Positions 20,717 through 33,244 are shown, counted from the stretch's first letter. The stretch is 64,000 nucleotides of DNA from an uncultured Clostridia bacterium (GCA_947626145.1 CANQRB010000004.1:29250-93249); one strand, 5' to 3'. Notes: generated by a model from the sequence alone, not told the origin. Program-made: numbers and translations.

Positions 20717-21340
20717 TTACGATTTTTTGAACTTCGTTTTAAGCGCCTCAAAGTTTGCTTTCAGCTTGGCACGCTCAGCTTCCATTTTCTGCTTGCGTTC
20801 TGCGCTACGCTCAGCGTGCATCTTACGGCGAGCTTCGTCGGCAAGTTCTTTTTCTACGCGCATTGCTTCTTCTACCTCGTCCTGTACCAATGTAGCATCG
20901 CGTCGAAGAATCGTCGTTTGAAACTTATCGAACCGAAAATCCAGTGCATGATCTGTTTCCTCCTGCGCAAGGAGAAGAATCGCGACCTCACCGTCCTCCA
21001 GCTTTGATCCAACCGTTTCCAGCATTGTGTTGTTCCGATCCACATCATCAATGTCTTTGGCGCTTCCAATCAGATGACCTGTCATACCACCCAAAAGGAT
21101 GCCGAGAGGACCACCGAGAATTCCGATCAGACCGCCAATCAGACCGCCCGCGAGGGCGTCATCGCTGCTGTCCATGCCGCTTGTGAATGAGTCTATGGTG
21201 GAAATTATATTACCGTTTTTCTTTACAAGCGCCCCTTGCAATACGGTATATTGCGGCATAATTGGCTGCTTTTTGATTCCCATGTAGGCTTGATAGCCCT
21301 CGCTTTCCACATTGAACAAAATAGTTAAGACATTTTCCAT
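20717..21340 (-). CDS. Hypothetical protein with a glycine-zipper core and Lys/Glu-rich coiled-coil tail
   Basis: 207 aa. GGLIGGLIGILGGPLGILLGGMTGHLIGS glycine-zipper motif, and a C-terminal ERSAERKQKMEAERAKLKANFEALKTKFKK. GAAAGGAAG RBS. Confidence 0.7.
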   Translation of the reverse strand: MENVLTILFNVESEGYQAYMGIKKQPIMPQYTVLQGALVKKNGNIISTIDSFTSGMDSSDDALAGGLIGGLIGILGGPLGILLGGMTGHLIGSAKDIDDVDRNNTMLETVGSKLEDGEVAILLLAQEETDHALDFRFDKFQTTILRRDATLVQDEVEEAMRVEKELADEARRKMHAERSAERKQKMEAERAKLKANFEALKTKFKKS

Positions 21341-21538: not shown

Positions 21539-21988
21539 TTATCTCCTGTTTGCTTTTTTCAGTTCCTTTTGGGCGGCTTTGATTTCCCGTTGCAGTTCGT
21601 CAAGTTCCTGTTCCAGTGCGTCGGCAATATAATCTCCGGTAATCACAGCGGCACGAATCATACAGGCGGTGCTTACAATGGCATCCTCCACCTCTTTTCC
21701 GAGTCCGAGGAGTTCCAGAGAACCTGTGCCGTTTTCATCGTACAGCACCACGTCCGGAATCCCGTTTTTATCCGTGTCTCCGAAGTACAGATTGAATTCT
21801 CCGTCGCCGGTGAGATCCACCGCCAGCGTGTCAATATCTCCGTCGCCGGTGGTATCAAGCAAAGCCAAATCCGCTTCTTTATCTCCGTCAATATCGATCA
21901 AAATCTCGTCTTTTCCACTGCGAAGCAGTGTCTTGTGCCAGTCGCGGTCAAATTTCATTTTAGTTTTCAATTTTCTGAGGGTTCCCAT
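21539..21988 (-). CDS. Hypothetical protein with tandem DxDxDG (EF-hand/dockerin-like) calcium-binding repeats
   Basis: 149 aa. DIDGDKEAD, DTTGDGDID, DLTGDGEFN and DTDKNGIPD loops. C-terminal amphipathic helix LEQELDELQREIKAAQKELKK. AAAGGAG RBS. The overlapping plus ORF 21443-22039 is rejected. Confidence 0.7.
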   Translation of the reverse strand: MGTLRKLKTKMKFDRDWHKTLLRSGKDEILIDIDGDKEADLALLDTTGDGDIDTLAVDLTGDGEFNLYFGDTDKNGIPDVVLYDENGTGSLELLGLGKEVEDAIVSTACMIRAAVITGDYIADALEQELDELQREIKAAQKELKKANRR

Positions 21989-22039: not shown

Positions 22040-22330
22040 GGTTATTCTGTCCGCAACACAAACAGGGGCTCTCTTTGCGGCATTTCTGGAGGGGATGATG
22101 CCGGCAATTTCTGACGCAACAAGCACCCCACCCCTGTGGTGGCCGGGTAGTGTTTAACTTCGAAATAAATCAATGAAATCATTAGTAATCTTATAACTTC
22201 TCCCTTGATTTATTCCGTTTCATCCGATCCCATTTTTGCAGCAGCCTCTTTATAGAAACATCCAAATATCCAATATAATTTTGCCACCGTAAAATCCGCT
22301 TATGATAGGGGCCTTCCTTTCCAAAAAACT
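22040..22330 (-). pseudogene. Rearrangement scar: relic SAS leader fused to a GT8 3' end fragment and a pgsA-like 5' fragment
   Basis: 22040-22140 parallels the first ~35 codons of the PgsA-like gene (22987..). 22140-22260 parallels the last 15 codons of the GT8 gene (FYKEAAAKMGSDETE vs FYKEAVAKMRSDETE) plus the intergenic spacer. 22290-22330 repeats the SAS gene leader/RBS (ttttttggaaaggaagg). No intact ORF. Confidence 0.6.
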
Positions 22331-22368
22331 TGTTGGATTGATACCGTCTCTGCCGCTTCTCACAAATC

Positions 22369-22403
22369 ATGATAGCAGAGAAATCTAAACTGAAACGAAA
22401 CTG
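22369..22403 (-). promoter_or_regulatory. Conserved promoter module, copy 1 (TTTCAGTTTAGATT box + TGC-TATCAT)
   Basis: Minus-sense GTTTCGTTTCAGTTTAGATTTCTCTGCTATCATGA. It lies upstream of the scar and of the 21988/21340 genes. Confidence 0.55.
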
Positions 22404-22414
22404 TCTTTTTTCTT

Positions 22415-22987: not shown

Positions 22988-23005
22988 TGAATATCCTCCC
23001 TTAAT

Positions 23006-23851
23006 CTATTCCGTTTCATCTGATCTCATTTTTGCAACAGCCTCTTTATAGAACACATCCAAATCTCCGATATAATTTTCTTTCCACGGTTTATTCCTTC
23101 CGCAGTAGTGAATTATAATGGAGTGCTTTCGTACCCAATTCAAATCAAGACTTTTTTCAAATGGACTGTGCACCCGATAAAGCCACTCTGTCATGTTATA
23201 TCGAAATGGGTCCAGCGTATAGATTTTGCTGCCATACAGGCTGCTGATAATGTCCTGATCCGGAAAGACAAGATGAGATTTTCTCTTTTCGATGAAGTGA
23301 AACACATCCGCATAGTCCTGCTCTTTCCGTAAAAGCGAGAGGTTCATGAGCAACACGCCGGAATTAATATATGGGCTGTTGTCATCCATATCCAGACGCA
23401 GTTCATTGAACTTATGGAGAAACCCAAGACTGTCAATGTGTGACGCTGCCGCATAATAGTATTCTTCCATCGAGGTCTGATACAGTGGAAGAATCGAACC
23501 ATTGAGAACAAGATCGGGGTCAAGATAGAGCACGCGGTCGAGAGTCTCCGGCAGATAGCGTGCAGCAAAAATACGGTAATAAATCTCTTGTGGATAGCGC
23601 GAAGTTGTTGGGGCCTCGTCAAGCGCCAAATAATCAGCCTTTATTGGGATCAGACATCCTCCTGCCTTAAAAAGCATTTTTTCGGTTGCTTTAAGCGCCT
23701 GCTTTGAAATTGAGGAATGAAGAAGATACACATGGAATACGCAGCCTGGGTTGGAGCGAATCAAGGTTGAAAGCATCACATTCAAATAGGGGATGTAGTT
23801 TTCATCCAAAGTAACAAGAATATTAATCGGATTTATCAATCCAGGATTCAT
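23006..23851 (-). CDS. Family 8 glycosyltransferase (GspA/LPS glucosyltransferase-like)
   Basis: Start at MNPGLINPINILVTLDENYIPYL (GGAGGG RBS; the track's upstream extension is rejected). YLDPDLV DxD motif and a GT8 core. Confidence 0.8.
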   Translation of the reverse strand: MNPGLINPINILVTLDENYIPYLNVMLSTLIRSNPGCVFHVYLLHSSISKQALKATEKMLFKAGGCLIPIKADYLALDEAPTTSRYPQEIYYRIFAARYLPETLDRVLYLDPDLVLNGSILPLYQTSMEEYYYAAASHIDSLGFLHKFNELRLDMDDNSPYINSGVLLMNLSLLRKEQDYADVFHFIEKRKSHLVFPDQDIISSLYGSKIYTLDPFRYNMTEWLYRVHSPFEKSLDLNWVRKHSIIIHYCGRNKPWKENYIGDLDVFYKEAVAKMRSDETE

Positions 23852-23917: not shown

Positions 23918-24625
23918 CTATCGTGGTTTCAGAGTATTTTTATTTTGTTGGGTCTTTTTTAAGAGGTTATCCATTCTCCGATCAAGTTCCGCGCTGAGGT
24001 TTGCGCACTGATAAAGTTCCTCAGCCATTTCCGGGGTAAATGCAGAATCCTTTTTATAACGAAGCTGATGTTCAAGGCTGGCCCAGAAATCCATCGCTAT
24101 CGTGCGCAGCTGAATTTCTACTTTCATCATCCGTTTTTCATGTGCCAAAAAGATCGGAATTGCTACAATCAGATGCAGACTTCTATATCCGTTGGGTTTC
24201 GGGTTTTTTATGTAGTCCTTTTTTTCAATCAGGGTAATGTCATCCTGTATGAGCAATGCCTCTGACAGCGCATAAACATCGTCCGGAAATGAGCAGATTA
24301 CTCGAACACCGGCAATATCGTTTAGATTTTCTTCTATAGAGGAAAGTGTGGGCGGGATGCCCCGCCGCTCCAATTTTTCTTTTATGCTGCGGGGATTTTT
24401 CAGTCTGGTTTTGATACTGCTTATCGGATTACGGTCGAATTCCAAAGAATATTCTTCATTCAACACATTGAATTTTGTTTCAATCTCCATCATGGCACAT
24501 TTGTAATAGGACATCAGGCGGATAAAAGGTACAGATTTTCTCTGCATCCAGTCGATTGTCTGATCGTCCACAATAGAGAGCATTCGTGTTTTTATATTTT
24601 CATCCTCTTGATTCCATTCAGACAT
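23918..24625 (-). CDS. Small alarmone synthetase (RelA/SpoT-domain GTP pyrophosphokinase, RelQ/RelP-like)
   Basis: Start at MSEWNQ with GGAAAGGAAG RBS. Synthetase motifs GYRSLHLIV, EIQLRT, DFWASLEH.LRYK. ~235 aa with no hydrolase domain. Confidence 0.8.
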   Translation of the reverse strand: MSEWNQEDENIKTRMLSIVDDQTIDWMQRKSVPFIRLMSYYKCAMMEIETKFNVLNEEYSLEFDRNPISSIKTRLKNPRSIKEKLERRGIPPTLSSIEENLNDIAGVRVICSFPDDVYALSEALLIQDDITLIEKKDYIKNPKPNGYRSLHLIVAIPIFLAHEKRMMKVEIQLRTIAMDFWASLEHQLRYKKDSAFTPEMAEELYQCANLSAELDRRMDNLLKKTQQNKNTLKPR

Positions 24626-24692
24626 TCTGATCTTCCTTTCCAAAAAACAAAGCTTGTTGGATCAATACCGGCTCTGCCGCTTTTCGCAGGTA

Positions 24693-24724
24693 ATGATAGC
24701 AGAGAAAACTAAACTGAAACAAAA
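24693..24724 (-). promoter_or_regulatory. Conserved promoter module, copy 2 (upstream of the SAS-GT8-pgsA operon)
   Basis: Minus-sense GTTTTGTTTCAGTTTAGTTTTCTCTGCTATCATTA. The -10 is ~70 nt from the start codon. Confidence 0.55.
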
Positions 24725-24818
24725 CAACGACGGACCCTTCGAAAAAGAAGAATCCGTCTGACCGCTTTACGGCGGAAGTAATAAACTAATTTTATAACCA
24801 TTTCGCAAGTTGACTGTA

Positions 24819-26588
24819 TCAAGCTGCAAGGCAGCGAGCGTTGGCGCTGGATTGCTCCAGCCGGTCAGATGCTGCTTTGATTGCAGCCATCTCACTTTCA
24901 GTTACGGTTTCCGGTTTATATTTGCCAAGCAACTTTCGTAATGCAGAACAGTCTTCTTTAATCTGCTTTTTTTCTTCTTTTTCAAGCTGCTTCCCAACTT
25001 TGTGCAATGCCTGTTCAGCTTCTGATAATACCTTCCCTGCGCGATTAACCATTTCTAAAGAGTTACGGCGAACACCATCCTGTGCCGCATACTGTTCCGC
25101 ATCGCGAATCGCCTGTTCAATCTCCGCATCGGACATTTTATCATTGTTCGAAATGGTAATAGACTGTGCTTTCCCCGTATCCAAATCTCTTGCGGACACT
25201 TTTAAAATTCCATTGGCATCAATGTCGAAAGTAACTTCAATCTGCGGCACTCCTGCGGGGGCTTTCTTAATTCCGTTAAGTTTGAATTTGCCGATGGTCT
25301 TATTATCGCGTGCCATTGGCCGTTCTCCTTGTAGAACATGAATTTCCACACTGCTTTGAAACGGTGCCGCGGTTGAAAAAATCTGTGAATAGTGAATGGG
25401 CAAAGTGGAATTTCTCTCCACAAGACGTGTTGCGACACCGCCTACTGTTTCAATAGAAAGGCTGAGAGGGGTAACATCCAAAAGAAGGATACCGTTTTCC
25501 GAACCGGCAATCTGCAGCGAACCGCCAGAAAGCGTGTCTCCCTGAATGGCGGCGCCCTGAGCAACACACTCATCCGGATTGATATTCTTTGACGGTATAA
25601 TACCGGTCAATTGACGCACTTTTTCCTGAACAGCGGGAATACGGGTTGCGCCTCCGACAAGGATGACCTTGCCAAGTTCGGATGGCGCAATACCAGCATC
25701 ATTCAAGGCGTTCTGTACCGGAATTGCTGTTCGATCCACAAGATCGCGGGTCAGCTCGTTGAATTTGGCACGGGTGAGGATAGTATCAAAGTGTATTATG
25801 CCGTCCTTTTCCTGGGCCAGGTACGGCAGGCTTATCATAGCGTTCTCTGAGCCGGACAGTTCCTTTTTTGCCTGTTCAGCCGCTTCACGCACACGCTGCA
25901 ATGCTACATAATCTTTTTTTACATCTGTATGATACTGCCTCTGAATTTCCGAAATCAAATACTCAGTGATACGCTCATCAAAGTCATCGCCGCCCAAATG
26001 GTTATCACCATTTGTTGCCAGAACTTCTATAACGCCGTCTCCAATCTCAATGATGGAAACATCAAAAGTACCGCCGCCAAGGTCATATACCATGACCTTT
26101 TGCTGTGTTCCGTTATCCAGCCCGTAAGCAAGCGCGGCGCTGGTTGGCTCATTAATAATCCGTTTTACATTTAAGCCTGCAATTCGCCCGGCATCTTTTG
26201 TGGCCTGTCGCTGAATATCGTTAAAATAAGCGGGTACAGTGATGACCGCGTCCGTCACTTCCTCTCCAAGAAAGGCTTCTGCATCCTTGCGCAGTTTTCG
26301 TAGAATCATTGCACTGATCTCCTGCGGCGTAAATCTTTTACCGTCAATATTGATAGTCCAATCCGTCCCCATGTGACGTTTCACAGACGAAACGGTTCGG
26401 GACGCATTAGTAACCGCCTGTCGTCTTGCCGTTTCACCCACTAACCGTTCACCGGATGCGGTAAAAGCAACAATGCTGGGAGTGGTTCTTCCGCCTTGTT
26501 CGCTTGGAATGATAACGGGTTTGCCGCCCTCTACAAAAGCGACGCAGCTATTCGTTGTTCCAAGATCAATACCGATTGTTTTTCCCAC
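24819..26588 (-). CDS. Hsp70-family chaperone paralog (DnaK-like, not in a canonical hrcA-grpE-dnaK-dnaJ context)
   Basis: Probable GTG start at [14 protein letters not shown] (GGAAAGGATGG RBS). Complete actin-like NBD ([24 protein letters not shown]) and substrate-binding domain. Neither grpE nor a full dnaJ is adjacent. Confidence 0.85.
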
Positions 26589-26605
26589 AGTAATTCCATC
26601 CTTTC

Positions 26606-27406
26606 CTACATACATCTAAGGCAGCCAAATGGGCCGCATAGGAATTGCATGGCTAAAAAGCCAAAACATATTTTTTGTATATTAGTGGCTTCCATATCGA
26701 AGCCTTTTGCATTTTGTTCATAGGTTTGCTCTGAACGGCGAAATTTTTGCAAAAGCAGATGATAGGTGCGATTATTCGGCTCCATTTGTGATGCTCTCTG
26801 CATATGGTCGATTGCCTGAACGGTGTTACCAAGACCATGATTGGCAAGAGCGCTTAAATAATACCACCTTGCACCTCGTCCTACGCTCGGTATACGGGTC
26901 AAAATCCAAATTGCCTCTTGATAGCGATGGTTATTGATTTCAGTAATGGCCTGCCTGATTTCCATATTGTCGCCCGGCTCAGGCTGCGGATTCATAAAAA
27001 CGGCATCATCATTGCCGTTCCGTTCAAATCCAAATCCAAAAATATTCCCAAAGTCAAAGCCGCCAAAATCGCTCGACCAGCCACCCGGACCTCGATAACC
27101 GCCAGAGCCGCCCTGCCTTTCATATCCGGTTCCACTATAACCGCCGTTTTGATTTTCCGTATATCCCCCATATTGCCTACTCTGTCCGTAAGATTGGCGC
27201 TGCTGTGCTCGCCTTGCCTCATACTTCTGCGGATTCATCAACATATCGTAGGCTTCATTCACCGCATTCATTTTTTGGCTCGCGGTCGGATCATCGGGAT
27301 GCAAGTCAGGATGATATTGCTTTGCCTTTTGACGATATGCTTTTTTTATTTCTTCTTTAGTCGCTCCTTTAGGAACGCCCAGAGTTTGATAAGGGTCATT
27401 GACCAT
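26606..27406 (-). CDS. J-domain protein (DnaJ N-terminal domain only) with a Gly/Tyr-rich linker and a helical C-terminal domain
   Basis: YQTLGV...[15 protein letters not shown] contains the HPD motif. It lacks the CxxCxGxG zinc-finger and the client-binding domains of true DnaJ. Confidence 0.8.
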
Positions 27407-27409
27407 GGC

Positions 27410-28228
27410 TCACTTTTTCCTTTCCGTCTGCATTTGCCGGTTATATTTGATCCAAACGCCAGAATAAAGAATGTTCCTTAAAATGTGGGCGTCCTGGACA
27501 AGCGGCAGCGATTCAAAGGCTTCAGCAGCTTCTCCGAGAATGGTCTTCAGCATGGAGCGGATTTCTTCCTGACTCAGAGTGACAGAAGAAAAAGGATTAT
27601 AACTTCCTTTTTTCTGGTCATGCCTTAAATCAATCGCGGCATCGGCAAGATAGATATACTTTCCGATATGATAACCAAACTTCTGCAAACGCGGCATCCA
27701 GTGATCCGGCTCAACCACAAAAATCGTTGACATCAATCTGCCAAAGCTGTTGGCTGCCGCATCTGGAGAGGCGAAGCAGGATTTCTCAATTTCAGAGATT
27801 TCATTTATTTCCTTTTCGATGATCGAACACTGATCTTTTCTTGCTGCTCTGACTTCTTCATAAGCCTTTTTAAGCAGAGTGGCATAGCACTTGTGGGAGA
27901 TATTTCGATCATCGTTCCAGTCGTCAAGACATTTGAAGTATGTCAAGGCTATTGTCATATCGGCGGCATAGTCTATATATTTACCGGACAGATAATTATG
28001 TTTCTTGCATGGATGCACGGCACATCGCACCGCTTTGCTGGTTTCCTCCGGTTCATACAAGGATGATAAAAACATAGCCAAGAATGTCAGATCGTATGTC
28101 AGTCCCAATCGCGACCTAAATCCATACCTTTCCCCCAACGCATGACACAATCCGCAATAAAAGGCACGATACCGTTCTTTTTCTTCATCAGTAAGACCGG
28201 ATAAATTGGCCTGTATGATTCCAAACAT
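27410..28228 (-). CDS. Uncharacterized Cys-rich cytoplasmic protein co-operonic with the J-domain/Hsp70 pair
   Basis: 272 aa; N-terminus MFGIIQANLSGLTDEEKERYRAFYCGLCHALGERYGF. From memory it resembles DUF5685-type proteins that accompany Hsp70/J pairs in Clostridia; this is not verified here. Confidence 0.6.
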   Translation of the reverse strand: MFGIIQANLSGLTDEEKERYRAFYCGLCHALGERYGFRSRLGLTYDLTFLAMFLSSLYEPEETSKAVRCAVHPCKKHNYLSGKYIDYAADMTIALTYFKCLDDWNDDRNISHKCYATLLKKAYEEVRAARKDQCSIIEKEINEISEIEKSCFASPDAAANSFGRLMSTIFVVEPDHWMPRLQKFGYHIGKYIYLADAAIDLRHDQKKGSYNPFSSVTLSQEEIRSMLKTILGEAAEAFESLPLVQDAHILRNILYSGVWIKYNRQMQTERKK

Positions 28229-28237
28229 AGTGCCACC

Positions 28238-28648
28238 TCATGTTTTGCGGGTTATTTTGCCTTTACATACCGGACAAGTGATTTCAATTTGCCCTTTTCC
28301 TTTCGGAACTCGTAGCCAACTTTTGCAGTTCGGACATTTATAATACCGATGCGTCTTTCGATCTCGCCACATATTTTTCCGACGTTTGAAACTCTGCTTC
28401 ACTTTGTCTGTATATTTCAAGAAAGTTTCCCGCTCCTTCTGTCGTTTTTCAAGATTGCGGGAAAAGCTGCGAAACATCGACCAAATCAACAGAATCATCG
28501 CAATCGGATATAGCAGAGGGACGAGCGGGGAAATGAGTACGAAAACCAGCACCGCAATCAATAGAAATTTGGAAAGCTCGTCATAGCCGTATCTTCCGTA
28601 CATCCATGCCTGCATTTTTTCTCCGAGCCTTTGCAACCATCGTTTCAT
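28238..28648 (-). CDS. Small membrane protein with a C-terminal zinc ribbon
   Basis: 136 aa; one or two TM helices, then CPNC...CPVC near the C-terminus. First gene after promoter module copy 3. Confidence 0.65.
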   Translation of the reverse strand: MKRWLQRLGEKMQAWMYGRYGYDELSKFLLIAVLVFVLISPLVPLLYPIAMILLIWSMFRSFSRNLEKRQKERETFLKYTDKVKQSFKRRKNMWRDRKTHRYYKCPNCKSWLRVPKGKGQIEITCPVCKGKITRKT

Positions 28649-28688: not shown

Positions 28689-28722
28689 ATTTTACAGCAA
28701 GAATCTAAACTGAAACGAAACT
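28689..28722 (-). promoter_or_regulatory. Conserved promoter module, copy 3 (upstream of the zinc-ribbon/DUF/J-domain/Hsp70 operon)
   Basis: Minus-sense GTTTCGTTTCAGTTTAGATTCTTGCTGTAAAATTT. The -10 TAAAAT is ~40 nt from the ATG. Confidence 0.55.
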
Positions 28723-28928
28723 AAGGAAGAGCTTTCTTCCAGACTATTTTTTCGGTAAGTTCAGTTCTGATAGATTTACTGAATAGCCGCAGAAGTCATA
28801 GACCTACATAAAAAAGAACCTCCACAACGAAGGCTCTCACGGTAAATCTCATATTGGAAGCGGCAGTATGCCTCACAGCACACTGCCACTTTACGCTTCT
28901 CATGCTTAATTAAATGTCCCGCACTATT

Positions 28929-29845: not shown

Positions 29846-30940
29846 TCAGTTTTTCTGGCTTTCTTCTTCTGCATTTAGCTTTGATTTCGGCAATGTAACC
29901 GTAAACATGGTAAGATTGTTTTCGCTTTGAACCGAAACCGTTCCGTTGTGCAATTCCACCACTTTTTTGACAATTGCAAGCCCGATTCCGTTTCCCTCAC
30001 CGGAGTGTGAACTGTCAGCCTGATAAAATTTCTGAAAGATTCGTGATATACTTTCCGCAGGAATTTCCTCTCCCGAATTGATGATATCCACGGACAGGGA
30101 AGACGGTTGATTTTTAATATTGACTTCAATGACTCCTCCAGCGGGAGAAAATTTGATCGCGTTATCCAGCAGATTGATCCACACCTGTTTCAAAAGCTCC
30201 TCATTGGCAGAAATCCTGTATTCACCGAAATCCACTTTAAAGTCCAGTTGCTTTTTTTCCCACTTGTCGGCAAGCAACAGGATGGAAGACCGGATTTGTT
30301 CTGAAAGGTTAAACTTTACAACATCCGTTAAAATCGTTTGATTTTCTACCCGCGTCAGATTCAACACGTTTGTCGCCATATCAGAAAGCCGCAGAGATTC
30401 TTCTTCGATAACCGCCAAATATTCCCCTTTTTGTTCTTCTGTCAGGTTGCCTCGGCGAAGCAGCTTTGCAAAGCCGGCAATAGATACGATGGGCGTTTTG
30501 AATTCATGCGAAAAATTATTTACAAAATCCCCACGAAGCATCTCTGTATTTTTGAGTTCAGAAGCCATTCGATTGAAGCTGTGCGAAAGCTGCGAAAAAG
30601 TAGGATGTTTGGATATGGGCCATCCGAAATCCAATCGGGCACTGAAATCACCGGATGCCAGCCGATCGATTTGATAAATTACATTCCGCAGGGGGCGGGC
30701 GGATATTTTACTGGATAAATAGGCAACAATGACACCGACAATATTACTGATGACGATCATGTAGAGGATGATAATACCGATGTTTGATCGGATATCGGTA
30801 TCAAGCGTGACAACTTGAAAATGTACCAGCATATAAATAATAGAAGCGGTTATTGAAGTAATAATAAATTGAATGAAAAAAATAAGTGTCGATATTAAAA
30901 ACGTGAGCGCAAAATAATGTTTTCGATTTTGTTTGTTCAT
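29846..30940 (-). CDS. Sensor histidine kinase (two N-terminal TM helices, HisKA, HATPase_c)
   Basis: H-box FSHEFKTPIVSIAGF, N-box LLDNAIKFSPAGG, G-boxes GEGNGIGLAIVKK. Overlaps the regulator gene stop. Confidence 0.9.
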   Translation of the reverse strand: MNKQNRKHYFALTFLISTLIFFIQFIITSITASIIYMLVHFQVVTLDTDIRSNIGIIILYMIVISNIVGVIVAYLSSKISARPLRNVIYQIDRLASGDFSARLDFGWPISKHPTFSQLSHSFNRMASELKNTEMLRGDFVNNFSHEFKTPIVSIAGFAKLLRRGNLTEEQKGEYLAVIEEESLRLSDMATNVLNLTRVENQTILTDVVKFNLSEQIRSSILLLADKWEKKQLDFKVDFGEYRISANEELLKQVWINLLDNAIKFSPAGGVIEVNIKNQPSSLSVDIINSGEEIPAESISRIFQKFYQADSSHSGEGNGIGLAIVKKVVELHNGTVSVQSENNLTMFTVTLPKSKLNAEEESQKN

Positions 30941-31611
30941 ACTTTTTTCACCGCCTTATATCCGAGCCCGCGCACGGATTCGATATCAAATTCTTCCCAA
31001 CCCTCGAACCGTTTGCGGAGCCTGCCGATGTGAACCGTCACAGTTTCCCACCCGGTATCGCTCTCAGCGCCCCAGATTTCATCCATCAGTTGAATCCGTG
31101 TAAAAATCTTTCCGGGGTATGACAGCAATTTATAAAGTAACAAAAATTCCTTTTGCGGGAGTTCTTGTGTCTCGCCGTTTTTGGTCACGGTAAAGGAATC
31201 GTAATCCAAAATTACATTTCCAATCGTCATTTTACGTTCGTTGGCAATTTGAGCGCGGCGTAGAAGTGCTTTGATTCGCCAGAGCATTTCTTCCTCATCA
31301 ATCGGTTTTGTCATGTAGTCGTCAATCCCTAATGAAAAACCTTTATGTTTATCTTCGGGGAGCTGTTTTGCCGAAACCATAAGAATGGGAAGATTGTTCT
31401 TGCTTTCGCGGAGGATTTTTGTAAATTCATATCCGTCCATTTTCGGCATCATTATGTCGAGAATCACAAGGTCAATATACTCTTTATCCATTACATCGAG
31501 GGCGTCTTCACCGTTTTCCGCAGTAAATACAGAATAGTGCTCCGTTTCAAGCACGGCTTTGAGCAGCCGGCGTGTATTTTTATCGTCGTCTACAACAAGA
31601 ATTTGGAACAT
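30937..31611 (-). CDS. OmpR-family response regulator
   Basis: Receiver domain VVDDDKN...DLVILDIMMPKMDG plus a winged-helix C-terminus (GYEFTK...RGLGYKAV). Confidence 0.9.
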   Translation of the reverse strand: MFQILVVDDDKNTRRLLKAVLETEHYSVFTAENGEDALDVMDKEYIDLVILDIMMPKMDGYEFTKILRESKNNLPILMVSAKQLPEDKHKGFSLGIDDYMTKPIDEEEMLWRIKALLRRAQIANERKMTIGNVILDYDSFTVTKNGETQELPQKEFLLLYKLLSYPGKIFTRIQLMDEIWGAESDTGWETVTVHIGRLRKRFEGWEEFDIESVRGLGYKAVKKV

Positions 31612-31642: not shown

Positions 31643-31675
31643 AAGATAACATACAAATCTAAACTGAAAAGAAAG
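31643..31675 (-). promoter_or_regulatory. Conserved promoter module, copy 4 (upstream of the response-regulator/kinase/TauE operon)
   Basis: Minus-sense CTTTCTTTTCAGTTTAGATTTGTATGTTATCTTAT. The -10 TATCTT with TGT is ~30 nt from the ATG. Confidence 0.55.
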
Positions 31676-32096
31676 TGTGCGAGTTTAATCCCCAAAATTT
31701 ATTATTTCGTTCAGCAGGCTTTTTCGCGTCTTTGAGCAACAGCCACATCTTTCCCATTTTATCGACTCCTGCAATACGTCCGGCAAAACAGTAATAATTT
31801 AATCATGCGGGGAGAGATACCCCATTTTTCGCTGCCTATTTGAACGTCATGTAATTAAAATATCGCACCTCCACATATAAAATTATATTTCGTTATCTTG
31901 AAGAAAGCAAGTGCATTTGATGAACATTAGATGAATTATTTACCCTCGCTACTGAAACTGTAAAGACATATCCAAATAAAGAAAGGGACTGTAAAATGGA
32001 TCAATTTCAATAAAGCGGACAGAAAAACATAAGATGGCAGGAAATTATGTAAAATATTCAATATCCATATTTCTCATAAAGTATATCACATAAAAA

Positions 32097-32871: not shown

Positions 32872-32879
32872 AAATATAA

Positions 32880-32995
32880 AAATCTAACGATTACTCAATA
32901 ATCCAACGATTACCCCAAAAAACTAACGATTTCCCATAAAACCAACGATTTCCCATAAATCCAACGATTTCCCATAAATCCAACGATTACACGGC
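32880..32995. repeat. Iteron-like tandem array: six copies of a 19-20-bp unit (consensus tCCAACGATTtcCCATAAA)
   Basis: AACGATT cores at 32886, 32905, 32925, 32944, 32963 and 32982. The last three units are near-identical. There are no spacers, so it is not a CRISPR array. It lies between the XRE terminator and tRNA-Ser. Confidence 0.7.
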
Positions 32996-33153: not shown

Positions 33154-33244
33154 TGGCGGAGAGAAAGGGATTCGAACCCTTGATCGGGGTTAACCGATAC
33201 ACGATTTCCAGTCGTGCGCCTTAGACCAGCTCAGCCATCTCTCC
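33154..33244 (-). tRNA. tRNA-Ser (anticodon GGA)
   Basis: Minus-strand GGAGAGATGGCTGAGCTGGTCTAAGGCGCACGACTGGAAATCGTG...long variable arm...GGGTTCGAATCCCTTTCTCTCCGCCA. 7-bp acceptor stem, CTGGAAA anticodon loop, class II variable arm, encoded CCA. Confidence 0.85.

Follow-up and report, generated by a model that had tools for sequence, protein, structure and literature searches.

Organization of the locus

The window analysed here, a stretch of 64,000 nucleotides from an uncultured Clostridia bacterium (GCA_947626145.1, CANQRB010000004.1:29250-93249), carries on its minus strand, at 28648-24819, four co-directional open reading frames (ORFs) that encode a small membrane protein with a zinc ribbon (ZnR), a member of the protein family DUF5685, a J-domain protein (J-protein) with a cysteine-rich tail, and an Hsp70 paralog. 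An earlier note on this DNA had described a non-canonical chaperone operon packed with spacers of 3-17 nt, and all four ORFs were found as it described them, with measured spacers of 9, 3, and 17 nt. The ZnR gene (28648..28238, 136 aa) is followed by those for DUF5685 (28228..27410, 272 aa, MFGIIQ...YCGLCHALGERYGF) and the J-protein (27406..26606, 266 aa), and finally by the Hsp70 gene, for which the longest ORF spans 26615..24819. Its true start is the GTG at 26588, with a GAAAGGA ribosome-binding site upstream and an N-terminus that fits the canonical one; the resulting protein (26588..24819, 589 aa) has a full nucleotide-binding domain (NBD), linker, substrate-binding domain (SBD), and lid; seven residues are inserted ahead of the linker, and an acidic tail is missing.

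Terminator-like hairpins on the same strand border the quartet on both sides. One at 28838-28814 (11-pair stem, then a T-run) ends the upstream unit of a response regulator (RR), a histidine kinase (HK), and TauE, and the other at 24758-24729 (12-pair stem, then GTTGTTTTGT) lies 3' of the Hsp70 gene. Given these hairpins and the short spacers, the quartet looks like a single transcription unit. The same gene string recurs on independent metagenome contigs, with identical contigs in several metagenome assemblies, and since its core gene pair is also conserved across hundreds of species, the arrangement is not due to chance.

Distribution and gene neighbourhood

Neighbourhoods were compared in 80 species-level genome loci, taken from at least 593 species that matched DUF5685 patterns, and, as a reverse test, in 80 metagenome loci fetched by a motif from the tetratricopeptide repeat (TPR) module of the J-protein. 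The genome loci were mostly from Clostridia, with a few from Coriobacteriia (Gordonibacter, Eggerthella) and one from Thomasclavelia, and Faecalibacterium and Clostridium are among the gut and rumen Clostridia that carry the module. A J gene lay directly downstream of DUF5685 in all 80 genome loci, and in the reverse direction DUF5685 lay directly upstream in 67 of the 70 metagenome loci with room for it, three lacking DUF5685 and the other ten of the 80 lying at a contig end. Fifty-two loci had 2.5 kb or more of sequence on each side; all 52 hold DUF5685 together with the J gene, 35 have an adjacent ZnR, 16 an adjacent Hsp70, and 8 the exact order of the window. Clustering of the neighbourhoods found no consistently linked gene beyond ZnR and Hsp70, and the neighbours outside the module vary. 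The conserved unit is the pair of DUF5685 and the J-protein, not the quartet; to the earlier question of whether the quartet travels together and with the adjacent two-component system, the answer is largely negative, such a system being near only a few loci. A link between the module and sporulation was rejected, as the module is present in non-sporulating Faecalibacterium and Coriobacteriia. Our searches of the literature on DUF5685, bacterial cysteine-string J-proteins, cysteine prenylation, and ComQ-like enzymes found no published description of the module.

The J-protein and its cysteine-string tail

The J-protein of the window is of class C (type III), with a J-domain (aa 1-73, 27188..27406, HPD at 32-34; PF00226, E 5e-21), only weak TPR matches besides, and no DnaJ_C or zinc-finger domain, and it scores far under the cut-offs of all DnaJ equivalogs. 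An AlphaFold model built on an alignment of 74 sequences predicted the J-domain with confidence (predicted local distance difference test, pLDDT, > 94), followed by a disordered Gly/Tyr linker (74-133), a helical module of three TPRs (aa 140-235, 26702..26989, pLDDT 95-98), and a tail helix (240-256). The last 27 residues form a cysteine-string tail (aa 240-266, 26609..26689) with four cysteines, there being none elsewhere in the protein; like the gene itself, all of these features are on the minus strand. Of the earlier description of a J-domain-only partner with a Gly/Tyr linker and a C-terminal helical domain, the J-domain with its HPD and the linker stand, but the helical part is a 3-TPR module followed by a cysteine string that had been overlooked.

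Such a tail is a constant property of this group, in that every complete DUF5685-linked J-protein has one (median six cysteines in the last 35 residues and zero elsewhere) and all 145 J-proteins encoded beside DUF5685 have at least four tail cysteines and essentially none in the rest of the protein. Most of the 160 distinct tails compared hold 5-7 cysteines within about 18 aa, amounting to 32% Cys, with D, E, and K almost wholly missing. The spacings within the strings are CxxC, CxC, and CC, individual cysteine positions are poorly conserved, and the last cysteine is the final residue in 93 tails and the penultimate one in 30, making it terminal or penultimate in 123/160. The tail of the window protein is weakly hydrophobic, its best 19-mer reaching -5.8 kcal/mol on the Wimley-White octanol scale. 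One protein of the representative library (P0259, 200 aa) joins 92 residues that match the C-terminal part of DUF5685 to the TPR module and tail of a J-protein, and more probably reflects a deletion or an error in gene calling than a true fusion.

Tail cysteines co-vary with DUF5685

In a search of 1.8 billion representative proteins, about one third of the top 150 J-TPR representatives had tails that resemble transmembrane (TM) segments and contain 0-2 cysteines. The genomic context of cysteine-poor proteins was then looked up; with two reverse-test exceptions (of three) added and L168-L173 checked by profile hidden Markov model (HMM), eight loci without DUF5685 resulted. These read ZnR-J-Hsp70 in L168, L170, and L175/176, ZnR...J-Hsp70 in L110, ZnR-J in L153 and L171, J-Hsp70 in L174, and MarR-J-Hsp70-RelQ in L172. 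The J tail has 0-2 cysteines in all eight, as against at least four in 145 of 145 DUF5685-linked proteins. In a rough neighbour-joining tree of the J-domain and TPR module, itself crude, the loci without DUF5685 fell into at least five separate cysteine-poor clades, so that the co-variation is not the result of one inherited event. The best 19-mers of the cysteine-less tails have Wimley-White octanol values of -8.5 to -16.2 kcal/mol, compared with a median of -4.3 for the cysteine strings, and the TPR module is unchanged in the loci without DUF5685, in which ZnR is also kept. The module exists in two forms, ZnR - DUF5685 - J(Cys string) - [Hsp70], or form A, and ZnR - J(TM-like tail) - [Hsp70], or form B, and this fits a TM anchor in form B that would replace a lipid anchor in form A.

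Fold and conserved motifs of DUF5685

The 272-aa protein belongs to Pfam family DUF5685 (PF18937), which it matches with 316 bits against a threshold of 26.7 (E 2e-94) over residues 1-263 of 272. The family holds more than 5000 protein clusters; the sole mention of it that we found in the literature is a list entry for C. difficile R20291, and the protein had no PDB sequence-profile match and no NCBIfam assignment. We constructed an AlphaFold (AF2) model from 23 sequences, with pLDDT 86 and a predicted template modelling score (pTM) of 0.88, and compared it with solved structures using Foldseek, which ranked the non-elongating prenyltransferase MoeN5 first (E 2e-4, TM-score about 0.55), with geranylgeranyl diphosphate (GGPP) and farnesyl diphosphate (FPP) synthases next. 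DUF5685 is thereby predicted to be a soluble protein with the all-alpha fold of the isoprenyl-diphosphate synthases of the trans type (trans-IDS) and class I terpenoid synthases, and the model would place it structurally in the isoprenoid synthase superfamily, outside every family described there.

Conservation was scored over 132 distinct sequences sharing 36-58% identity with the protein of the window. A first Asp-rich motif of the DDxxD type, D102-D-W-N-D106 (27911..27925, minus strand), with invariant D102 and D106, lies where helix 83-107 ends C-terminally, and a second motif of metal-binding type, D196-x3-D200-x3-D204 (27617..27643, minus strand), with all three Asp invariant, lies at the end of helix 178-199. 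Enzymes of this kind bind Mg2+-diphosphate at such helix ends. The second motif is not a DDxxD, and its i, i+4, i+8 spacing is NSE/DTE-like, a likeness drawn at the sequence level. In class I terpenoid synthases, the metal-binding signature consists of a DDxxD motif and, on the helix opposite, an acidic i/i+4/i+8 triad (NSE/DTE). The earlier note had found no recognisable catalytic motif in this protein, a statement that has to give way to the five invariant Asp residues and the predicted prenyl-synthase-type fold. Y24, D46, Y87, E148, and N211 are also strictly invariant.

A Cys3His set (28013..28156, minus strand) is formed by C25 and C28 in the YCGLC of helix 1 and by C69 and H72 in the RCxxHP of a beta hairpin (63-81), with conservation of 1.00 for the three cysteines and 0.98 for H72. 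The residues suggest a putative structural metal site, probably for zinc. Activation of a thiolate by a zinc bound there, as in eukaryotic farnesyltransferase, was considered and rejected as unlikely, because the inferred place of the set is the far end of helix 83-107. The loop 240-246, which joins the last two helices, carries an invariant, exposed L241-P242-L-V-Q-D (aa 237-242 region, window 27503-27520) that resembles the Hsp70-binding LPPVK motif of IscU and could equally be an active-site lid.

The Hsp70 paralog and the ZnR protein

The Hsp70 spans the whole PF00012 profile (E 1e-216, residues 14-587), in line with the earlier statement that NBD and SBD are complete. It clears NF001413 (810 bits > 648), falls just under the cut-off of the housekeeping DnaK equivalog TIGR02350 (798.6 < 822.55), and is also under those of the HscA equivalogs TIGR01991 (558.9 < 708.55) and NF003520 (556.8 < 620). 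Its nearest solved relative is the DnaK of Geobacillus (663 bits, 61.5% identity over the aligned region). Its neighbours in the window are the J-TPR protein and RelQ rather than those of an hrcA-grpE-dnaK-dnaJ operon, as the earlier note had observed, and we found no dnaJ, grpE, or second Hsp70 in the window, grpE having been searched with a single query of limited sensitivity.

Sequence comparison divides the module-linked Hsp70s into two classes. Class I, which includes the window protein, is encoded downstream of the J gene and, compared with Geobacillus DnaK, has an insertion of 5-14 residues directly before the interdomain linker, SLSIE in place of SLGIE, and, instead of the absent acidic tail, a conserved C-terminal L-E-x-S-S-A-x (LExSSA) motif (window 24819-24890; L003-L130). 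Class II has no such insertion and looks like canonical DnaK; its genes lie upstream of DUF5685, in Clostridium and in related loci. The class I proteins of Coriobacteriia are about 70% identical to the window protein, above its 61.5% to Geobacillus DnaK, and because they share this identity and the same insertion, transfer of the module between phyla as a unit is suggested. A shortened Hsp70 (505 aa, truncated lid) follows the J gene in some form-B loci (L175/L176, 4828-6345). We consider the window Hsp70 best described as a dedicated, non-housekeeping DnaK paralog, judging from these scores and signatures, and in the two thirds of loci where no Hsp70 is linked, the J-protein presumably works with the housekeeping DnaK. 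Eukaryotic 3-TPR modules of like type bind the C-terminal peptides of Hsp70 and Hsp90, and by analogy it is conceivable that the TPR module of the J-protein contacts the C-terminal tail of class I Hsp70s. According to a 2026 review, bacterial DnaK derivatives beyond HscA and HscC are largely unexplored.

The statement in the earlier note that no nucleotide-exchange factor is encoded applies to this window, but two related loci (L056, 10626-11066; L068, 5404-5844) have grpE (PF01025, E 3e-34) directly 3' of the cysteine-string J gene, and grpE of L056 is itself followed by a DnaK of canonical appearance that has the acidic tail; in some genomes, the module thus borders on genes that may be the housekeeping grpE-dnaK pair. 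As for the dedicated, membrane-tethered Hsp70 machine that the note had proposed, a non-housekeeping J/Hsp70 set with a membrane component and a distinct Hsp70 class is indeed present, but the Hsp70 is adjacent in only 16/52 loci.

The ZnR protein has a conserved N-terminal M.GR.G.D.L motif, a hydrophobic hairpin of 32 residues (28-59; 19-residue Kyte-Doolittle maximum, KD19, 2.94 at residue 28), a basic linker, and a C-terminal CPNC...CPVC zinc ribbon, with conservation scored over 94 sequences, which bears out the earlier description of a small membrane protein ending in such a ribbon. There are 292 detectable relatives, none of them named and none fused to other domains. The profile searches that the note had proposed for the two smaller proteins were thus productive for DUF5685 (PF18937), and for the 136-aa protein returned the membrane stretch and ribbon with no named relatives. 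The idea that ZnR is a DHHC-like acyltransferase was rejected, as it has no DHHC motif and is kept where the tail has no cysteines.

Regulation and genomic surroundings

A 34-nt promoter/operator repeat (minus-strand consensus GTTTCGTTTCAGTTTAGATTTCTCTGCTATCAT) occurs in four copies in the window, each directly upstream of a transcription unit on the minus strand: before RR-HK-TauE (31645-31678), before ZnR and the quartet (copy 3, 28691-28724), before RelQ, GT8, and a CDP-alcohol phosphatidyltransferase (24695-24728), and before a short ORF (p59) and the p149-DUF1269 unit (22371-22404). Three copies carry the 12-mer core unchanged and the fourth differs from it at one position, and a related 11-mer precedes the RR gene in L002; GTTTCGTTTCAGTTTAG is a candidate sequence for RR binding at the repeat-bearing promoters. 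Pfam matches identify the OmpR-type RR (31611..30937) and the HK (30940..29846), both on the minus strand, the latter with two N-terminal TM helices joined by a very short loop and so apparently of the intramembrane-sensing type. As these units share the same repeat, the RR and HK are likely the regulators of the repeat-bearing promoters, and the pattern suggests that the four units form an autoregulated regulon of the adjacent two-component system.

The RelQ unit begins with a RelQ-type small alarmone synthetase (SAS) at 23918..24643 on the minus strand (PF04607, E 3e-33), which scores 170.8 bits with NF053588, under the cut-off of 320. Co-regulation of the quartet with RelQ is plausible in this window, and the repeat and the type of kinase hint at an envelope-stress regulon. 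The order RR-HK-ZnR-DUF5685 is also found in L002 and L006, with RRs 77-81% identical, and a two-component system is nearby in L010, L044, L050, and L131. RelQ lies directly 3' of the module-linked Hsp70 in the close relatives L003 and L006 and in the distant form-B locus L172 (MarR-J-Hsp70-SAS), making the link of Hsp70 to SAS recurrent but minor. The co-regulation with a (p)ppGpp synthetase proposed in the earlier note agrees with the shared repeat before ZnR and RelQ here, but the link to the two-component system and RelQ is local rather than family-wide, being confined to close relatives and one distant locus.

Around the fourth repeat copy, window 22129-22404 is a mosaic duplicate in which a 77-nt piece of the RelQ leader (86% identity with 24649-24725) is joined to copies of the junction between the end of GT8 and the start of the CDP-alcohol phosphatidyltransferase (CDP-OH) gene, with 22200-22257 being 91% identical to 22996-23053. 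The 59-aa ORF at 22370..22191 probably stems from a partial copy of the RelQ-GT8-CDP-OH operon that has decayed. The unit that follows encodes a 149-aa acidic protein with DxDxDG-like repeats (21539-21988), possibly Ca-binding, and a DUF1269 membrane protein (20717-21340), both of which may belong to the same regulon.

The region of about 30 kb at 4000-34000 has a GC content of 0.38-0.48, against 0.52-0.63 in the flanks on either side, with a tRNA-Ser(GGA) gene (33154-33244, minus strand) and a tandem array of five copies of a 19-nt repeat (32875-32988) at its right edge, and has the appearance of a tRNA-associated genomic island. It also encodes an extracytoplasmic function (ECF) sigma factor, an ABC transporter, and a 1443-aa surface protein with S-layer homology (SLH) and M4-peptidase domains. 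An Rfam search over 20-34 kb found no riboswitch or leader, the tRNA-Ser being the sole match, and no PADLOC defence-system model was matched by the four quartet proteins; RelQ alone matches a candidate model.

Proposed mechanism and alternative explanations

We read the quartet as an example of a conserved but uncharacterised module, found in anaerobic Firmicutes and some Coriobacteriia, that would place an Hsp70-recruiting J-protein at the cytoplasmic membrane, an overall explanation to which we assign a probability of roughly 0.42. The job of the J tail would be membrane attachment, provided in form B by a hydrophobic anchor and in form A by a marginally hydrophobic cysteine string that needs DUF5685. 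Enzymes that ionise allylic prenyl diphosphates have the fold predicted for DUF5685 and metal/diphosphate motifs like its invariant ones. DUF5685 may therefore bind such a diphosphate, most likely FPP, a donor to be expected in every bacterium, through its two Asp motifs and Mg2+, and transfer the prenyl group to tail cysteines, so that the weakly hydrophobic tail would become a lipid anchor. ZnR, which is kept in both forms, would have two membrane helices and a zinc ribbon on the cytoplasmic side; it is most likely the membrane partner or client and would probably be engaged by the TPR module, which would serve as a peptide-binding module on a flexible linker. The anchored J-domain would then stimulate ATP hydrolysis by DnaK, by the dedicated paralog here and presumably by the housekeeping protein elsewhere, and the work of Hsp70 would thereby be aimed at a membrane-proximal target. 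In the window, the quartet would probably be induced together with RelQ and the lipid- and glycosyl-transferase genes as a regulon responding to envelope-type stress. The reading draws on the fold and motifs of DUF5685, its obligate pairing with the J gene, the correlation with tail cysteines and the greater hydrophobicity of cysteine-less tails, the cysteines at or next to the tail end, the precedents of peptide-prenylating trans-IDS-fold enzymes and of lipid-anchored eukaryotic J-proteins, the class I Hsp70 signature, and the regulon repeat. In its wider form, the claim that DUF5685 works on, or together with, the cysteine string of a J-protein directed to the membrane seems to us probable by some distance. 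S-prenylation of that string is a tentative proposal, for which our expectation falls somewhat short of even, and we are equally reserved about the idea that DUF5685 is the founding family of bacterial protein S-prenyltransferases on the terpenoid-synthase fold, prenylating the J-protein string multiply.

Several observations weigh against prenylation. DUF5685 had no match to PF00348 (polyprenyl_synt) even at E <= 10, hhalign gave a probability of 0.2% for its alignment with E. coli IspA, and its assignment as an enzyme comes from the predicted fold and motifs, not from sequence similarity. Judged by helix geometry in the model, the Cys3His set and the Asp motifs appear to occupy opposite ends of the bundle. 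A few J-proteins (L037, L043, L069) continue for 15-45 residues beyond the cysteine string, so that a strict C-terminal recognition rule fails, and L151, the sole oddity in the co-variation, encodes a fragment with a cysteine tail and no J-domain and has no DUF5685. The correlation itself would fit just as well if the tail were bound non-covalently or took part in a jointly ligated metal site. To our knowledge, no trans-IDS-fold enzyme prenylates cysteine. All characterised trans-IDS-like peptide prenyltransferases target Trp, and they use Gln before the second Asp motif (PMC13290415), where the residue before D196 in DUF5685 is Ala (LADA).

In two other readings, the tail is not a lipidation site. 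One of them follows the logic of HscB-IscU-HscA and makes DUF5685, as an isoprenoid-metabolising enzyme or a metal or cluster carrier, the client of the J-protein, which would deliver it to DnaK or the paralog for switching or recycling while the tail docks non-covalently or shares the metal of the Cys3His set. A gene order of client, J, and Hsp70 that mirrors iscU-hscB-hscA, the invariant Cys3His set and LPPVK-like loop, the obligate pairing in 80/80 loci, and the correlation itself, which is expected if the tail is a docking element, all speak for this model. We nevertheless think it unlikely: J, ZnR, and Hsp70 persist without DUF5685 and with the TPR module unchanged, which implies a function independent of DUF5685, the only thing that shifts is the tail chemistry, and toward a membrane anchor, which the model does not predict, and the Hsp70 scores as a DnaK and not as an HscA. 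Less likely again is that DUF5685 is an inert or differently active bundle that shields the cysteine tail before insertion, in the manner of GDI or Get3, or loads it with Zn or Fe-S, the string then being a metal-binding or redox-sensing element. Five to seven cysteines in 18 residues with CxxC, CxC, and CC spacings could bind metals, the host organisms are anaerobic, the hydrophobic tunnel of the fold could hold a hydrophobic peptide, and J-proteins with Fe-S clusters are reported from chloroplasts (10.1101/2025.08.22.671721). Five Asp residues that are strictly invariant over 132 sequences are hard to explain in this way, however, cysteine positions in the string are poorly conserved, and the exchange of the string for a plain TM-like segment argues that the tail is for membrane attachment.

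There is finally the ordinary possibility of a duplicated general-stress DnaK/DnaJ-like pair on a genomic island, expressed along with RelQ and with unrelated neighbours, namely a hypothetical and a small membrane protein, and having no specific mechanism. The similarity of the Hsp70 to Geobacillus DnaK and its NF001413 score, the low-GC island beside a tRNA gene, and the variable genes beyond the module would agree with it, but the adjacency in 80/80 and 67/70 loci across hundreds of species, the sharing of the module by Firmicutes and Coriobacteriia, which suggests transfer as a unit, the class-specific Hsp70 signature, and a tail state that tracks DUF5685 make it very improbable, and it is already contradicted by the conservation data.

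Relation to known systems and significance

The module works like specialised J/Hsp70 pairs and resembles CSP, the cysteine string protein, in architecture, but belongs to none of these families. CSP (DNAJC5/CSPalpha) has a like order of J-domain, linker, and cysteine string, and is palmitoylated. A farnesylated eukaryotic J-protein is dj2/Ydj1 (PMC2140199). With CSP, Ydj1, and DNAJA1/2, the likeness would be that of a J-protein tethered to the membrane through lipidated cysteines, lipidation being the proposed part here, but those proteins are eukaryotic, lack the TPR module, and are lipidated by DHHC palmitoyltransferases or the alpha-alpha-barrel CaaX farnesyltransferase, which have unrelated folds; the likeness outside the J-domain is convergent. 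The predicted fold of DUF5685 likewise differs from that of the eukaryotic protein prenyltransferases (CaaX or Rab CC-CXC; alpha-alpha-barrel with catalytic Zn), and ends like those of their acceptors, with a terminal or penultimate cysteine, are frequent among the tails (123/160) but not universal. HscB-HscA (IscU) also joins a specialised J-protein without the substrate-binding domains of DnaJ to a dedicated Hsp70 paralog and a partner, but the J-protein here has TPRs and a cysteine string instead of the HscB C-domain, and two thirds of loci do without the Hsp70. DjlA of E. coli is an inner-membrane-anchored type III J-protein that recruits DnaK, but carries its TM helix N-terminally and its J-domain C-terminally, and its profile matches our J-protein weakly (NF006948, 26 bits against a cut-off of 162). 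DNAJC7/TPR2 combines peptide-binding TPRs with a J-domain, but is eukaryotic and has the opposite domain order.

Among enzymes, MoeN5 is only 13% identical to DUF5685 and puts geranyl on a lipid acceptor in moenomycin biosynthesis, with no J-protein context. Enzymes of the trans-IDS fold that prenylate a peptide encoded by an adjacent gene are known in ComQ/ComX, PalQ, and ChrPC (PMC13290415, a 2026 review). ComQ/ComX, PalQ, the ChrPC P domain, and Ord1 prenylate Trp, whereas the tail of the DUF5685 partner is Cys-rich with no conserved Trp. DUF5685 has no detectable sequence similarity to the ComQ-type enzymes and shows neither their Trp acceptor nor the Gln before the second motif, and its candidate substrate is a 266-aa cytoplasmic co-chaperone rather than a secreted pheromone or a ribosomally synthesized and post-translationally modified peptide (RiPP).

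With these results, DUF5685 gains a predicted fold, candidate catalytic residues, and a specific candidate substrate, and the form-B loci provide a natural control. If the prenylation proposal is false, the strict co-variation is still an unexplained functional link that needs another mechanism. If it is true, this would be the first native bacterial system for the prenylation of protein cysteines, prenylation would be a native bacterial device for membrane targeting, and cysteine would be added to the acceptor range of trans-IDS-fold prenyltransferases, which is of interest for biocatalysis. It would also mean that lipid-anchored J-proteins evolved convergently, with a counterpart of eukaryotic CSP and Ydj1 widespread in gut Clostridia.

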